The notes under the pieces are model-generated. The model ran no database searches and was not told the origin of the DNA. It saw nothing but the letters and a program-made list of their open reading frames with translations. The position numbers and the translations under genes were made by a program. Of a stretch of DNA of 64,000 nt, positions 4,887 to 12,085 are shown one piece after another. The stretch is from Bacilli bacterium (GTDB taxonomy: Bacteria; Bacillota_I; Bacilli_A; RFN20; CAG-826), in the NCBI GenBank assembly GCA_024408565.1, contig JAKSUW010000001.1, forward strand, positions 28,498 through 92,497, in the 5' to 3' direction. Position 1 is the first letter of the stretch; the number at the start of each line of letters is the position of its first letter.

Positions 4887-5531
4887 TTACTTTAGCAAAC
4901 TTTTTACTTTCTTTTTGTAATCATCAATGTGATTGAAGAAGATTTCTTTCATTTCGTTCGCGGTTAAAGCGGGGTCTTCTTTCTCTTTTCGGTTATCAAC
5001 ACTAATAAAAGCTTCATAAATCTCTGCGAAGGTTGGTAAAACATCTAAAAGGCGGTTCCGTTTACTTAACCGATTCACCACTTGGAAGGCTTTCATCATC
5101 CGGACACGAATGGGTTCAATATATTCAAAGATACAAGTTTTAAAATAAAGAACATCTTCAGGCGTTTGGTCCGGCAACATTAAATAAGTGCATTTAAACC
5201 GCTTATCGTTCTTTTTAAGAGTGTCCGCTAAATAGTGATCAAGCCGTAATTCAAAATCACCAATATCAGCAATATATAGCATTTCTAAATACGACACTTT
5301 TTCATTTGAAGTACCAACATCTAATAAAGAATATTGTAAAAGTTCATTGAAGTCCTTCCGCATATTCTTAAAACCCATTGAATCGGGCGAATCGTTTAAT
5401 TTCTTACTTTTATCGTTAAATAACTCTTTTCGCGCGGTTAAGGGTAAAACACAATAAAGTTTAAATAAATGTTGAATCATTTCTTCATAGGCGACTTTTC
5501 CACGCCGGAAGATATCAGGGATTTGTTCCAT
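4887..5531 (-). CDS. Hypothetical cytoplasmic protein (214 aa).
   Basis: Intact ORF with host-like codon usage. No motif recognised. Confidence 0.45.
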   Translation of the reverse strand: MEQIPDIFRRGKVAYEEMIQHLFKLYCVLPLTARKELFNDKSKKLNDSPDSMGFKNMRKDFNELLQYSLLDVGTSNEKVSYLEMLYIADIGDFELRLDHYLADTLKKNDKRFKCTYLMLPDQTPEDVLYFKTCIFEYIEPIRVRMMKAFQVVNRLSKRNRLLDVLPTFAEIYEAFISVDNRKEKEDPALTANEMKEIFFNHIDDYKKKVKSLLK

Positions 5532-5585
5532 AAATTACCTCACTCTGGGGTGATTATAGCAAAACGCCACTAGTGATTTCAAATA

Positions 5586-5612
5586 ATTTAAAAAAGCACC
5601 CCATAGGGGTGC
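5586..5612 (-). terminator. Rho-independent terminator (GCACCCC-ATA-GGGGTGC) after the 246-aa membrane gene.
   Basis: 7-bp GC-rich inverted repeat at 5596-5612 flanked by T/A runs. Confidence 0.7.
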
Positions 5613-5631
5613 TTATTTTTAACTTATCTTT

Positions 5632-6372
5632 TTATTTTTTTAGGATTTGTCTAGCTAATTTATTAGCGGTAGCTTGGTTCGCCACGATGTTCCGGTAATG
5701 GATCCGTGAACGATACGCTAAGATAAGACCCACCACATATAATGGATTAAGCCAAATAAGCATATAATAAATAACTTTTTGACCAACCGTGTAACTAGCG
5801 AAAGTATCAAGTGTATAGATTGTCATTAAGATACCAATTGTCACTGAGACAACTAAAGCAACTAATAAATAGATACCAGTTAATTTCTTGTTAGTTAAGC
5901 GTTGGGCAGCGCCAAACACCATTACTGCGACAATCGCGTCCGCCACAGCACAAATCGTACCAACCACAAACTTTTCGCCCAAAACATCCACATTATAACA
6001 ATCAGCGGCAATCGAAATAATCGCTAGTAAGGTGATTGTGTAAAACGGTATATATAGGAAAGCGTGGGAGCGTTTATGACCAAAAATCGTGTAAATACAA
6101 AGTGAGAGCCCTGCTAAAATAGAAGCTGCTCCTGCTATGTAAGTCATCCAAATATTATAAGGAGCAAAGCCTTCTTCTTTCGCGTAGTGAAAAGCGAAAC
6201 CGCCAACGACTAAGCCGGCCGCAAGAATGGCGAAGTTAAAAATCCATTCAGCTAAGATGCCTAAGCCATTCGAGAATTTGTGTTCACTCGGCATTTTTAA
6301 ATGAGTGAGGGCTTCAACCCGGGCCGCTTGTTGACTCTTAGCAGTTAATTTTGTTATTCGTTTTTTTGCCAT
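5632..6372 (-). CDS. Integral membrane protein of unknown function (246 aa, about 6 TM helices).
   Basis: Hydrophobic-segment pattern. It lies between recA and rny, as pbpX does in Bacillus, but no PBP motifs are present. Confidence 0.45.
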   Translation of the reverse strand: MAKKRITKLTAKSQQAARVEALTHLKMPSEHKFSNGLGILAEWIFNFAILAAGLVVGGFAFHYAKEEGFAPYNIWMTYIAGAASILAGLSLCIYTIFGHKRSHAFLYIPFYTITLLAIISIAADCYNVDVLGEKFVVGTICAVADAIVAVMVFGAAQRLTNKKLTGIYLLVALVVSVTIGILMTIYTLDTFASYTVGQKVIYYMLIWLNPLYVVGLILAYRSRIHYRNIVANQATANKLARQILKK

Positions 6373-8490: not shown

Positions 8491-9207
8491 TTATTTACTT
8501 GGTTTTAAAACCTTACGGTTTTGGATGACATAGATTACACCACTTATAAGGGAAAGAGCCGTGGTTAAATAAACAAAGATGGCGACAATTCGACTCGCTT
8601 GAGGCCAAGTGTAGTCAAAATAGCTAAACGGCCAGCCGTTAAGTAACACTAATGGGATAGTAATCATTTGGGCAACCGTTTTGGCTTTACCAAAGATGTT
8701 AGCCGCAATCACAATCTTCTTTTGGGCAGCGATAAATCTTAAAGCGTCAACCACAATATCGCGTCCCACCATTAAGATGACGCAATACGCAGGGATGATA
8801 TATTGTTTTCCAACCGGCCAAGAAGCAAATTCGTTATAAATCGCTAAGAAGATTAATAAAGAATTGACCAATAATTTATCGGCAATCGGATCTAAGAACT
8901 TGCCTAAATCAGTCACTTGGTTATTTTTTCTTGCTAGATAACCATCTAAGGCATCGGTTGAAGCCGCGATGATAAAGATAATGCACACCACAAAATAAAC
9001 AACATTAATTGGGGTATCGCCTAGTGAGATGGAAAAGATCGGAAGAAAGAAATCACGATTCACCGCACACAAGATTTCAATCGTCGCTAAACCTAAGATC
9101 ATTAAAACGACTAGGATAATGCGCGAAAAAGTAATTTTTGTTGGCGTATTCATAGACAAAAATATTATACAATAATATTTTGTAATTAACACAAAAGTTA
9201 ATGTCAA
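8491..9207 (-). CDS. pgsA: CDP-diacylglycerol--glycerol-3-phosphate 3-phosphatidyltransferase.
   Basis: CDP-alcohol phosphotransferase motif DALDGYLARK…G…D. Multi-TM. Synteny pgsA-cinA-recA as in Bacillus. Confidence 0.85.
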   Translation of the reverse strand: MTLTFVLITKYYCIIFLSMNTPTKITFSRIILVVLMILGLATIEILCAVNRDFFLPIFSISLGDTPINVVYFVVCIIFIIAASTDALDGYLARKNNQVTDLGKFLDPIADKLLVNSLLIFLAIYNEFASWPVGKQYIIPAYCVILMVGRDIVVDALRFIAAQKKIVIAANIFGKAKTVAQMITIPLVLLNGWPFSYFDYTWPQASRIVAIFVYLTTALSLISGVIYVIQNRKVLKPSK

Positions 9208-9229
9208 TTTATATCAAACATTATCTTAT

Positions 9230-9261: not shown

Positions 9262-9597
9262 TTGGTCTCCGACCCGATAAGCCATGTTTTGTCGTGGGTG
9301 ACAATTTATCTAAGCATTGCTTATAGGTCCTCACTTCAGTTCGTGGTTCCTATTTCCCTTACCATTATTTAGGTTTCTCGCTTGTGGGGTTTACCAACGT
9401 TTCACTCTGCTAATTCCTTAGCAGCTCGTCTCTGTGGCACTTTCAGGAGCTTATTGTCCTTTAGGGATGCGGCTCCGCCGTTATACACCGCTATACCTAG
9501 CGTTATTTTTTCCGCTAGCACAATCACTACTAACATCTCAGTTAGTGCGAGCATGGACTTTCCTCTAGTTAACTAGTAGTCACCTAGGTCGGAGTGT
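9262..9597 (-). ncRNA. rnpB: RNase P RNA, type B.
   Basis: The minus strand contains UAGAGGAAAGUCCAUGCUCGCAC (P4 region), which matches B. subtilis rnpB as I remember it. The P1 helix is CUCCGACC (5') paired with GGUCGGAG (3'). A TTGCAA-17-TAATAT promoter sits just upstream and a terminator downstream. Confidence 0.85.
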
Positions 9598-9740
9598 AGA
9601 TATATTACATTCTTGATGATAATTTTGCAAATCAGCCATATTTATCAGTTAGGTTCTTGTTAGTTATTTTATATAATTATTGCTAATATATTAGCGTTTT
9701 ACTTGCTTTTTATCTATAAAATGATAATATATTAACAATT

Positions 9741-10040
9741 ATGAAAGAACAAACACGCTTAATCGATATTGGTGATTTTATTAGCATTACTACACCAGAA
9801 AAAATGAAATTAATCATTTTACGTAATGTTATTGCGCGGAGAAAAGAAAGAAAGATATCGCAAATAGCTTTAGCCGAAAAAGCCAAAGTCAGCTATGGAT
9901 CGATTCGTCGTTTCGAAAAAACGGGCGAAATATCATTAAATTCATTACTAAAAATCGCTTTGGCCTTAGATTGCATTGAAGATTTTCGCGAAGTCTTTTC
10001 TCACGCGATTATTACTAATCTTAAGGACTATCAACCATGA
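9741..10040 (+). CDS. hipB: XRE-family HTH transcriptional regulator (HipB-like antitoxin candidate).
   Basis: 99 aa. The HTH reads …ISQIALAEKAKVSYGSIRRFEKTGEISLNSLLKIALAL. The stop overlaps the hipA-like start by 4 nt (ATGA). Confidence 0.65.
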   Translation: MKEQTRLIDIGDFISITTPEKMKLIILRNVIARRKERKISQIALAEKAKVSYGSIRRFEKTGEISLNSLLKIALALDCIEDFREVFSHAIITNLKDYQP

Positions 10041-11134
10041 TAAAAGAAATCGATAAGGTTACCGTTAAATATCAAGATCGCGTTGTTGGTTATTTAGTAA
10101 GAAATAAGGACCAACGCATTAGTTTTCAGTACGATGATGAATGGATACAAAATGGTTTTTCAATTTCTCCGTTATCTTTAAAATTAAGTAATCAAATATA
10201 TATCAACACCAAAGACCCATATAGTTTATTCGGCGTGTTTAATGATTCTTTACCAGATGGATGGGGCGAACTATTAGTCGCTCGCTATTTAGCAAGACAA
10301 GGAATCGATTATGATAAATTATCACCATTGACGAAACTAACCTTAATATCTAATAACGGCTTAGGCGGATTAAAATACGAGCCGACCCAAGGAGTTAGTC
10401 TACCTAATGATAAAAATTATGATTTTGATAAAATGGCGCAGGCAATCAAGGAACTTTTAAATGACGACTACCAAAAGAAAACCTTAGATGAGATATATCA
10501 ATTAGGCGGATCAAGTGGTGGCGCGCGCCCAAAAGCGCATATCAAAATTAAGCAGGAAGACTGGATTGTTAAATTCCCATCGCATATCGATTCGAAAAAT
10601 ATTGGGCAAGAAGAATACCACGCTAATTTATTAGCCAAAGAGTGCGGAATTAATGTCCCAGAAATTAAATTATTTCCTTCAAAAAAATGCCATGGATATT
10701 TCGGTGTGAAACGATTTGATCGGCAAAGTAACAAACCAATTCATATGATTTCGTTAGCCGCCATATTAGAAACGAGCCACCGCTTAGCTAATCTAGATTA
10801 TATTCATCTTTTCCAAGTAATTTCTATCATCGGTACAACCAATGATTTATATGAAGCGTTCCGGCGAATGTGCTTCAACGTTTATTACATGAATAAAGAT
10901 GATCATAGTAAAAATTTTTCATTTATCTATGATGAAAAAACGAATCATTACTATTTATCTCCCGCCTACGATCTCACGAAAACGAAAGATAAATTAGAAC
11001 ACGAAATGACCATTAACGGATCGCCTGACCCAAGCGACGATGATATATTAGCGGTGGCTCGTCGTTTTAAACTTGATATAAAGGTTTGCCAGGAAATCAT
11101 ACAAACGATAAAAGAGGTGGTTCAATATGATTAA
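10037..11134 (+). CDS. hipA: HipA-like Ser/Thr kinase (type II toxin-antitoxin toxin family).
   Basis: 365 aa. HipA N-terminal motif (…SLPDGWGELL…), a P-loop-like GGSSGGARPK, catalytic NKDDHSKNFS and SPAYDLTKT. Confidence 0.7.
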   Translation: MIKEIDKVTVKYQDRVVGYLVRNKDQRISFQYDDEWIQNGFSISPLSLKLSNQIYINTKDPYSLFGVFNDSLPDGWGELLVARYLARQGIDYDKLSPLTKLTLISNNGLGGLKYEPTQGVSLPNDKNYDFDKMAQAIKELLNDDYQKKTLDEIYQLGGSSGGARPKAHIKIKQEDWIVKFPSHIDSKNIGQEEYHANLLAKECGINVPEIKLFPSKKCHGYFGVKRFDRQSNKPIHMISLAAILETSHRLANLDYIHLFQVISIIGTTNDLYEAFRRMCFNVYYMNKDDHSKNFSFIYDEKTNHYYLSPAYDLTKTKDKLEHEMTINGSPDPSDDDILAVARRFKLDIKVCQEIIQTIKEVVQYD

Positions 11135-11705
11135 ATATCCAAACGGTGGCAGTTTCTCGCCAACGAGCAAAAAGAGTAAACCCCATAAACATATCGCGAG
11201 TGCCGCTAACCGCGGGATGAGTTTTGAAGACGCGATTAACCAAAGTAATGAGTTTTATCTTGAACGCGATATTGCGGTCATTACTAAACGCCCCACTCCG
11301 ATTAATGTGGTGAAAGTGGATTATTCGCACGGAGCGAAAATCACCCACGCCTATTTTGAAAAACAATCAACGACTGACTATAACGGCGTGTATAAAGGTC
11401 GTTATCTAGATTTTGAAGCTAAGAGTAGTAAAAATCCTACCTCATTCCCACTTAATAACATTACCCCACACCAAATTAAGCATCTAGAACGGGTGTTAAA
11501 GCACGGCGGAATTGCGTTCTTTTTAATCGAACTCACAAGTTTACACGAAGTATATTATTTATCCGCGGAGTACGTGATTAACTTTTATCATCACGCTAAA
11601 CGGAAATCCATCCCAATTAAAGACATTAAAAAAAGTGGGTATTTAATTAAGCCCACTCTTTTACCCCGCTACCACTATTTAGCGGTGGTCGATAAACTCT
11701 TATAA
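11127..11705 (+). CDS. recU: Holliday junction resolvase RecU.
   Basis: MIKYPNGG…NRGMSFEDAIN…TDYNGVYKGRYLDFEAK…FPL aligns with B. subtilis RecU as I recall it. The start overlaps the hipA-like stop by 8 nt. Confidence 0.9.
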   Translation: MIKYPNGGSFSPTSKKSKPHKHIASAANRGMSFEDAINQSNEFYLERDIAVITKRPTPINVVKVDYSHGAKITHAYFEKQSTTDYNGVYKGRYLDFEAKSSKNPTSFPLNNITPHQIKHLERVLKHGGIAFFLIELTSLHEVYYLSAEYVINFYHHAKRKSIPIKDIKKSGYLIKPTLLPRYHYLAVVDKLL

Positions 11706-12085
11706 CTTTTTAAAATTAAATAATAAAGATAGTTAAATTGATCATTCATTGCGCTGGAATAAAACATGATGCTTTGGTGAGGTGTCGTAAAGCACTTATT
11801 AATTAATTGATCTTTAATCTTTAAGATTTGTTTAATTTCAGCGTTTGCTTTCTTCTTACTACTCTTATAAAGTTTCATCCAACGCTGCAAGATAATCATG
11901 GTTTCGCCATAGGCGAGTAAAACTTCACTCGCGTTTTTAAAAGGTTTAAATTTCTTTTGGTAATCTTTTGGGAATTTAATACTTTTTGGATCCACAAAAT
12001 AAAAGGGAACTAGATACATATCACAAAAGATCCCATGGTGTTTAATTTTACTTTTCATCGTTCTTCCCCCACTTCTTTTCAACAA
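11675..12085 (-). CDS. Hypothetical small basic protein (136 aa). Overlaps the 3' end of recU convergently and is coupled to dnaD.
   Basis: Intact ORF directly downstream of dnaD. Possibly occupies the YpoC position of the Bacillus dnaD-nth-ypoC cluster. No motif recognised. Confidence 0.35.
   Translation of the reverse strand: MLKRSGGRTMKSKIKHHGIFCDMYLVPFYFVDPKSIKFPKDYQKKFKPFKNASEVLLAYGETMIILQRWMKLYKSSKKKANAEIKQILKIKDQLINKCFTTPHQSIMFYSSAMNDQFNYLYYLILKSYKSLSTTAK

Follow-up and report, generated by a model that had tools for sequence, protein, structure and literature searches.

A small group of gut Bacilli with a hipBA toxin-antitoxin cassette inserted before recU

HipA and HipB constitute a type II toxin-antitoxin (TA) family with the gene order hipBA (Gerdes et al. 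2021, PMC8262856), and in Escherichia coli four TATCCN8GGATA operators are recognized by HipB, for which HipA serves as co-repressor (PMC3920265). The promoter of a TA system may also serve genes that lie behind it: read-through into downstream housekeeping or regulatory genes is described for mazEF-sigB of Staphylococcus aureus and mazEFG of E. coli in a passage of PMC3920265 that cites Donegan and Cheung (2009). The Holliday-junction resolvase gene recU is found in a polycistronic unit with ponA (pbp2) in Bacillus subtilis and S. aureus (PMC3584850). The locus analyzed here, in a 64,000-nt stretch of contig JAKSUW010000001.1 from a Bacilli bacterium (hereafter the window, to whose positions all coordinates refer), carries a hipB-hipA pair whose end overlaps the start of recU. 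The explanation that best accounts for the findings as a whole, to which we assign a probability of about 0.7, is that an intact, horizontally acquired hipBA cassette was inserted on the 5' end of recU, and that recU now follows the autoregulated TA promoter.

Three successive open reading frames (ORFs) on the + strand were identified from the ORF list and the raw sequence: hipB (9741-10040, 99 aa), encoding a Cro/C1-type helix-turn-helix (HTH) antitoxin/repressor, hipA (10037-11134, 365 aa), encoding a Ser/Thr kinase toxin, and recU (11127-11705, 192 aa) as the third cistron. The hipB stop and the hipA start share ATGA at 10037-10040, and the hipA stop and the recU start share 8 nt at 11127-11134 (ATGATTAA), where CAA TAT GAT TAA is also read as ATG ATT AAA. 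These ORFs and both overlaps, as well as the kinase motifs LPDGWGE, GGSSGGARPK, NKDDHSKNFS and SPAYDL, had been reported in a preliminary description of the locus and were all confirmed. The 192-aa product is a RecU protein, which matches PF03838 over the entire model (E 2.5e-57, model positions 1-162 of 162) and NCBIfam TIGR00648 with 177.4 bits (cutoff 176.75). A recU Shine-Dalgarno sequence, GAGGTG, lies at 11114-11119 (+), 7 nt 5' of the ATG and within the last hipA codons, and its GAGGT is kept in L001, L037 and L038 (L-numbers denote compared loci and P-numbers family proteins). The arrangement is well beyond chance because the chain hipB-hipA-recU recurs in four further contigs.

The distribution of the cassette was examined at 38 recU loci, 35 of which came from a one-genome-per-species scan with RecU and three (L036, L037 and L038) from the closest HipA homologs, with neighbours mapped by tblastn using the proteins of the window's neighbours. 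Only in the window, L001, L036, L037 and L038 does hipBA precede recU (HipA 73-98 % identical); the other loci of the 38 do not carry it at this position. The nearest locus, L001, belongs to a 'Bacilli bacterium' metagenome-assembled genome (MAG) from horse faeces with 96 % identical DNA, and has hipBA in the variable interval as the window does. L036 (HipA 73 %, RecU 82 %) has hipA, a 4-nt gap and recU, followed by the synteny dnaD-cca-hup-der, and L037 and L038 (HipA 85-87 %) have the order acyltransferase-hipB-hipA-recU with the same 8-nt overlap. In the hipBA-less loci L002 and L003 an acyltransferase gene directly adjoins recU, and the acyltransferases of L037 (L037:2-562) and L038 (L038:1-471) share 82-86 % identity with it.

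This last similarity allowed empty and occupied sites to be compared directly in a junction alignment. The empty sites read ...AATAG followed by ATGATTAAATATCC in L003 and ...AATTG followed by ATGATCAAGTATCC in L002. On the left of the occupied sites, ...AATAG is followed by ATAATTAAATAA in L037 and ...AATTG by ATAATCAAATATC in L038, with cassette DNA next, and their right junction reads ATGATTAAATATCC. About 13 nt of the recU 5' end are therefore present as a direct repeat on both sides of the cassette in L037 and L038, the flanking repeat being ATGATTAAATA. In the window, the recU 5' end ATGATTAAATATCC (11127-11140, +) is the source of the hipA stop (GAT TAA), and the last two hipA codons plus stop (xAT GAT TAA) are built from the first recU codons. 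DNA homology between the window and relatives without hipBA (L002, L003 and L004) ends at approximately 9611-9639 and resumes exactly at 11127, as determined by blastn and alignment. The cassette occupies 9650-11126 (+), with its left edge at approximately 9650-9667 from homology with L037 and L038 and its right edge at the recU ATG. Its left bound is the divergent RNase P RNA gene rnpB (class B, 9273-9591, -; Rfam RF00011, 237.7 bits, E 1e-69), found at the same position in relatives, and the host DNA between them (9592-9640, -; blastn and alignment) contains what is probably the rnpB promoter (minus strand, TTGCAA...TAATAT). The preliminary description had offered, as an alternative, the insertion of a TA module before recU beside rnpB, and the empty and occupied sites, the flanking repeat and the homology break show that such an insertion took place.

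The recU neighbourhood in relatives indicates what the cassette entered. The backbone shared in this clade of Bacilli from horse and ruminant guts is recA-cinA-pgsA (-), rnpB (-), a variable interval, recU (+), orf136/dnaD (-), cca, hup and der. In most relatives two genes fill the interval, one of the GpsB/DivIVA type (-) and one for an RNase_T-family DEDD exonuclease of 241 aa (+; PF00929, E 4e-15) that shares ATGA between its stop and the recU start; in L005-L029 the exonuclease gene lies at about 5273-6004, with the gpsB/DivIVA gene and rnpB upstream, and forms a conserved exonuclease-resolvase operon. The ancestral layout of the clade is thus rnpB (-), gpsB (-) and an RNase_T exonuclease gene overlapping recU, and recU was a distal, overlapped cistron before hipBA came. 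In L002 and L003 (RecU 73-74 %) the exonuclease is replaced by a 288-aa acyltransferase gene (PF01553; L002:5157-6023, L003:193-1041) that overlaps recU. No copy of the acyltransferase was found by tblastn in the 64-kb window, whose lineage has deleted it together with the left repeat. In L004 (RecU 69 %) there are a 480-aa Listeria-Bacteroides-repeat surface protein gene and then genes for a 155-aa HTH protein and a 399-aa HipA_C/PI3_PI4-like kinase (L004:4109-5779), the pair ending 127 nt upstream of recU; this kinase matches the PADLOC candidate PDC-M03A (E 1.3e-19). It was considered as a diverged copy of the window HipA and rejected as independent cargo, there being no BLASTP similarity (E 0.62). 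Two unrelated HTH-kinase modules have landed independently 5' of recU in sister lineages.

Such turnover raises the possibility that hipBA is an anti-phage (abortive-infection) or other mobile accessory module in a variable rnpB-recU slot, with recU a bystander. Different cargo is indeed found there, namely the acyltransferase of L002 and L003 and the surface-repeat protein and HTH/kinase genes of L004, and left of rnpB in L001 a KilA-N gene and a 674-aa lipoprotein gene; the HipA and host trees disagree, a distant family member lies beside an integrase gene, and the literature counts HipA-domain genes among predicted defence genes (PMC11706625) and sees protection against phages as a major role of TA systems (PMC8262856). 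However, the window HipA matches PDC-M03A only weakly and in part (E 1.2e-7, residues 173-312), and no phage or integrase gene is present within or beside the cassette in the window. We consider this alternative tentative, and it is compatible with, rather than exclusive of, the best explanation. As a separate observation, collinearity between L001 and the window is confined to the part from 9226 rightwards; left of rnpB, L001:1-4100 carries the KilA-N gene (278 aa) and the 674-aa repeat lipoprotein gene in place of pgsA-cinA-recA, which reflects either a rearrangement or insertion beside the rnpB terminator or a MAG misassembly.

On the other side of recU, the preliminary description had set the missing ponA against the kinase module upstream of recU, and the argument from this absence was not supported. 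No ponA (class A PBP gene) follows recU in the window or in the loci of its clade, and convergent orf136/dnaD come after recU in essentially the entire clade (29 of 35 loci, whether or not hipBA is there); in the positive controls Fictibacillus (L030) and Lactobacillus (L031), recU was followed by a class A PBP gene (Transgly and Transpeptidase domains). Since clade loci without hipBA also lack ponA, its absence predates the cassette, is unrelated to it and represents an old trait of the clade, in which recU never had ponA behind it. Compared with the recU-ponA operon, the RecU family is the same, whereas in the window's clade recU closes its operon, with the partner gene upstream and convergent orf136/dnaD after it. 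The 136-aa ORF orf136 (11675-12085, -) overlaps the recU 3' end by 31 nt and the dnaD 3' end by 38 nt; it has no Pfam or NCBIfam family and is 60-99 % conserved in close relatives.

The kinase is a genuine HipA. Its N-terminal part matches Couple_hipA (PF13657; E 5.2e-18, residues 9-114, 65.8 bits, cutoff 22.5) and the remainder the HipA_C kinase core (PF07804; E 2.4e-46, residues 159-362, 158.5 bits, cutoff 30.5). When compared with E. coli HipA by HMMER against PDB sequences and by profile alignment (hhalign), S159 corresponds to the autophosphorylation site S150, K179 to the ATP-binding K181, D288 to the catalytic D309, N293 to the catalytic-motif N314 and D312 to the Mg-binding D332, with D288/H290/K292/N293 aligning to the motif D309-x-H-x-K-N314. 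The loop GGSSGGxRPK (G157-K166), K179, D288-D289-H290-x-K292-N293 and S308-P309...D312 are invariant in 27 aligned HipA homologs, and the length of the protein matches those of stand-alone homologs in this alignment within a few residues. An AlphaFold (AF2) model (pLDDT 78.6, pTM 0.83, with residues 156-162 of the Gly-rich loop below pLDDT 50) gave 4pu4, 3tpt and 3dnv (Shewanella and E. coli HipA) as the best Foldseek matches (full length, E ~1e-15, TM 0.69-0.73), and its N-terminal 110 residues superpose on HipS (7ab3_E) with a TM of 0.76 to the target. The proposal of an intact hipB-hipA type II pair with its catalytic Asp is thus borne out by every catalytic residue in the alignment, both Pfam domains and the HipA fold, and these same data rule out both a lack of catalytic residues and membership of another kinase family.

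HipB contains an HTH_3 domain (E 1.3e-7; HTH at about residues 29-82) and a conserved C-terminal ITNLKDY tail, and it resembles the P22 C2 repressor. It scored below the cutoff of NCBIfam couple_hipB (TIGR03070, Y4mF; 26.1 bits, cutoff 71.65), and it is an HTH antitoxin of another subfamily. Similarly, the kinase scored far below the YjjJ/HipH equivalog (NF007297; 33.9 bits, cutoff 401), lacks an HTH and is bicistronic with hipB, and the locus is neither YjjJ nor HipT nor of the TIGR03070 type. Neither gene shows signs of decay. No frameshifts or stops occur in hipB or hipA in the five loci, pN is far below pS, and dN/dS is 0.04-0.08 for hipB, 0.05-0.10 for hipA and 0.03-0.05 for recU, values that are rough, as dS is saturated in distant pairs. 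All three genes are thus under strong purifying selection. It is conceivable that hipBA is a decaying or inactive remnant kept merely as a promoter donor, because recU needs an upstream promoter in this clade and a dead cassette could persist; nevertheless, the open frames, dN/dS ratios as low as that of recU and the invariant catalytic residues make this very improbable.

The relationship to described systems can be outlined as follows. With hipBA of E. coli K-12 and Shewanella oneidensis (3dnv, 3tpt, 4pu4 and 4yg7) the locus shares the hipB-hipA order, the stop/start overlap, the Couple_hipA and HipA_C domains and the fold (TM ~0.7), and with the E. coli system also the equivalents of S150, K181, D309, N314 and D332 and several palindromic operators overlapping the -35/-10 region. 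However, the window HipA is only 18-20 % identical to these HipA proteins and 75 aa shorter than that of E. coli (365 vs 440 aa), mainly after the Mg-binding motif (47 vs ~105 residues). The window also has two putative operators of another sequence (GCTAATATATTAGC), 41 nt apart, rather than four, a hipB that is predicted to be near-leaderless, a 99-aa HipB with a 28-aa N-terminal extension, and a housekeeping gene as third cistron. HipBST of E. coli O127 and Legionella and YjjJ/HipH belong to the same kinase superfamily, but in the window the HipS-like part is fused to the kinase as in HipA rather than being part of a three-protein system, and the kinase lacks the N-terminal HTH of YjjJ/HipH.

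Much closer are the short-HipA hipBA modules of Clostridia and Bacilli (such as P0016, from a Clostridiales MAG, and P0012; 'type II toxin-antitoxin system HipA family toxin' at NCBI), in which HipA is 57-62 % identical and 360-374 aa long, HipB has 95-96 aa, and the twin operators recur at -59/-18. A protein search gave at least 8000 relatives of the window HipA, most of them 57-62 % identical and 360-374 aa long, from metagenomes of Clostridia and Bacilli, and where named, they are called HipA family toxin. The window cassette belongs to this large, highly conserved short-HipA hipBA family of Firmicutes, of which we know of no experimentally studied member, and none was found in the literature searched. 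Those modules stand alone, with an intergenic gap of 130-200 nt after them, whereas the recU overlap is found only in the window's subclade. Among the family proteins, P0027 (493 aa) is a HipA-NUDIX fusion (PF00293/PF14815), and P0112 (HipA 60 % identical) carries the label of a 'Candidatus ainarchaeum' archaeal MAG, pointing to lateral transfer or to contamination of the bin. The event itself is of a known kind and represents a hipBA insertion in a small group of gut Bacilli rather than a new system.

The cassette appears to carry its own regulated promoter. Upstream of hipB lie two putative operators 41 nt apart: O1 (9682-9695), a perfect 14-bp palindrome GCTAATATATTAGC just 5' of the -35, and O2 (9723-9736), a 14-bp palindrome GATAATATATTAAC that overlaps the -10 and the predicted transcript start. 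Between and within them, the predicted hipB promoter consists of a -35-like hexamer TTGCTT (9703-9708, +) in a conserved block and, 16 nt after it, a conserved extended -10 TGaTAATAT (9722-9730, +). Allowing up to two mismatches, the operator motif occurs five times in the 64-kb window (0.47 expected), with four of these matches clustered in 1.4 kb, including two sites within hipA. In L037 and L038, O1, O2, TTGCTT and TGaTAATAT are conserved islands and the DNA further upstream is unrelated, and in L039 and L040 (~60 % identical) a palindrome pair at -59/-18 from the hipB ATG brackets a perfect TTGACA, at the place of TTGCTT in the window, and overlaps the -10. A systematic scan found two such palindromes 40-41 nt apart in 17 of 20 hipBA loci (HipA identity 47-98 %), for which reason O1 and O2 are very likely HipB operators, in an arrangement that is classical for an autorepressed TA promoter. 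The two palindrome-like sites within hipA (10622-10635 and 11039-11052) were rejected as internal operators, because they decay through synonymous changes in L001, L036, L037 and L038. The fifth match, GCTAATTTATTAGC at 5654-5667, lies within a 246-aa ORF (5632-6372, -), has no partner 41 nt away and is probably due to chance. The hipB transcript is predicted to begin 0-4 nt 5' of the ATG. With O2 and the -10 ending 5-11 nt ahead of that codon and no Shine-Dalgarno found 5' of 9741, the hipB mRNA is probably leaderless or nearly so.

Whether recU follows this promoter was assessed from several features. No terminator-like site was found on the + strand between 9741 and 11705. The absence of a terminator, the 8-nt overlap and the clade-wide reliance of recU on an upstream gene imply that recU is probably co-transcribed from the hipB promoter, and control of recU by HipB is plausible. 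Behind recU there is nothing convincing as a terminator (z = -1.2), the sole terminator-like hairpin being located about 208 nt downstream, at 11913-11932. If recU is co-transcribed, the locus would share with mazEF-sigB a chromosomal type II TA promoter that feeds a downstream gene; however, mazEF is another TA family, a weak terminator precedes the sigB operon and mazEF is not autoregulated in S. aureus, whereas the window has no gap and putative operators. In L037, a hairpin ATATCCTAAATAGGATAT followed by a T-run (L037:585-620) lies between the acyltransferase stop and left repeat and O1; it is a possible terminator for the acyltransferase gene, and if it acts as one, recU would be left to the hipB promoter in that lineage as well.

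The insertion might alternatively have no regulatory meaning, if recU were mainly served by an independent promoter inside hipA and by its own Shine-Dalgarno, with hipBA a mere overlapping neighbour. The candidate is an extended -10-like TGATATAAA at 11074-11082 (+), 53 nt 5' of the recU ATG, which is kept in the window, L001, L037 and L038 (four of the five hipBA-recU loci) and recurs identically at 9208-9216 (-) just 5' of pgsA, a place at which a genuine promoter is expected; moreover, the recU Shine-Dalgarno is strong and independent, and L036 tolerates a 4-nt gap. On the other hand, such motifs show no enrichment in the window (16 against an expectation of 10.9, with 7 of 100 shuffles reaching 16), the candidate has no -35 and is degraded in L036 (TGATTTAAA), and its conservation can be accounted for by coding constraint and AT-rich codon use, as it lies in the codons for the conserved KLDIK. 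Relatives without hipBA do not have such a motif in the overlapped upstream gene, which suggests that read-through normally serves recU. An independent internal promoter is accordingly possible but clearly less probable than co-transcription. With regard to pgsA (8491-9207, -, as listed with a TTG start), TGATATAAA lies directly upstream of that start; because homologs align only from about residue 18-19, the true start is probably the downstream Met (MNTPTKITFSR), with the 9208-9216 motif as the probable pgsA promoter.

A different reading of the same linkage is that hipB-hipA-recU is selected as a three-gene unit, for instance through phosphorylation of RecU or a recombination factor by HipA, or through a deliberate induction of RecU on HipB degradation. 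The linkage persists across five loci whose HipA identity falls to 73 %, all three genes being under purifying selection, the 8-nt overlap and the Shine-Dalgarno are kept in four of the five, and the Hip family is elsewhere linked to DNA-end-binding HIRAN domains (PMC8262856). However, recU is absent near hipBA at all 27 more distant family loci, close genomes lack hipBA at the same site, the junction resembles an insertion accident (recU start duplicated and hipA stop borrowed), and no extra domain or residue sets the window HipA apart from stand-alone homologs, so that this possibility appears improbable. Each of the distant family members is a two-gene module that stands alone in unrelated surroundings, in one case beside a TnpV/integrase gene, and a metagenome scan for further hipBA-recU loci yielded only relatives at most 61 % identical, without recU. 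A plasmid search returned no close relative (best match 47 % identical, in a Fusobacterium record, the rest at most 37 %), and there is no evidence for a plasmid as the source of the cassette. A tie to the DEDD 'diDNase'-HipA clusters was also rejected, because those are of the HipI/HIRAN type, from Actinomycetes and Clostridia and without mention of recU (PMC11706625), and because the exonuclease of the present clade is the original partner of recU and is not found together with hipBA. No description of a TA system in front of recU was found in the literature, in a search weakened by the fact that the term also matched 'recurrent'.

Several points weigh against the preferred reading of an inserted cassette whose promoter recU follows. 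The left copy of the repeat has degenerated (ATA in place of ATG) and comes from no more than two short contigs; three of the 20 family loci have a single palindrome over the threshold; the TGATATAAA motif at 11074-11082 could free recU from the hipB promoter; L036 has no overlap and a weaker Shine-Dalgarno, so tight coupling is not obligatory; and the dN/dS ratios given above are approximate. In addition, the HipA tree, ((window, (L037, L038)), L036), built with 23 outgroup sequences that are equidistant at 59-60 %, conflicts with the housekeeping-protein tree, ((window, L036), (L002, L004)). L037 and L038 group with L002 and L003 by their acyltransferase and the RecU N-terminus. Vertical descent after one gain is therefore too simple an account, and the cassette would have been exchanged between related lineages by flank recombination, or lost several times (for example via the flanking repeat), or both. 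A four-taxon acyltransferase phylogeny did not settle the order of gain and loss (10 vs 9 vs 4 informative sites).

Taken together, the sequence of events under the preferred reading is as follows. An intact hipBA type II cassette, consisting of a promoter, two HipB operators, hipB and a short hipA, would have been acquired horizontally by a lineage in which the upstream partner of recU had been first the RNase_T exonuclease gene and later the acyltransferase gene. It would have entered between the acyltransferase gene and recU and duplicated about 13 nt of the recU start, leaving the hipA frame to end in recU codons two and three, and the window lineage would then have lost the acyltransferase gene, putting the hipB and rnpB promoters back to back. 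By extension from established hipBA biology, a HipB dimer, with HipA as co-repressor, would act on O1 and O2 to repress the near-leaderless hipB-hipA-recU transcript, and HipB proteolysis would free HipA, resulting in growth arrest by target phosphorylation and in promoter derepression. Translation of recU would start from its own strong Shine-Dalgarno GAGGTG in the hipA 3' end, and the supply of RecU would follow the autoregulated TA promoter. The cassette would be hard to lose because its deletion removes the recU promoter. The gene identities, residues, fold, overlaps, operator conservation, insertion history and purifying selection are shown directly, whereas toxicity, HipB binding and co-transcription are inferred. 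A stronger version, promoter capture, holds that recU depends on the hipBA promoter, that the cassette is kept since its loss silences the resolvase rather than through post-segregational killing, that a burst of RecU on HipB degradation links persistence-type arrest to Holliday-junction resolution, and that the site is an exchange point via the recU and acyltransferase flanks; we regard this as doubtful.

The locus documents, at nucleotide resolution, the entry of a TA system into a housekeeping operon, with landing on a start codon, a short target duplication and a toxin stop borrowed from the host gene. The host gene may thereby become the passenger of an autoregulated TA promoter. If the co-transcription is true, this would represent a second, tighter coupling of the mazEF-sigB type, and it would be possible for a TA system to become fixed without a benefit of its own. 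Furthermore, a likely operator (GCTAATATATTAGC, in two copies 40-41 nt apart) is now defined for a very large and apparently unstudied short-HipA family of gut Firmicutes, which makes this family testable.

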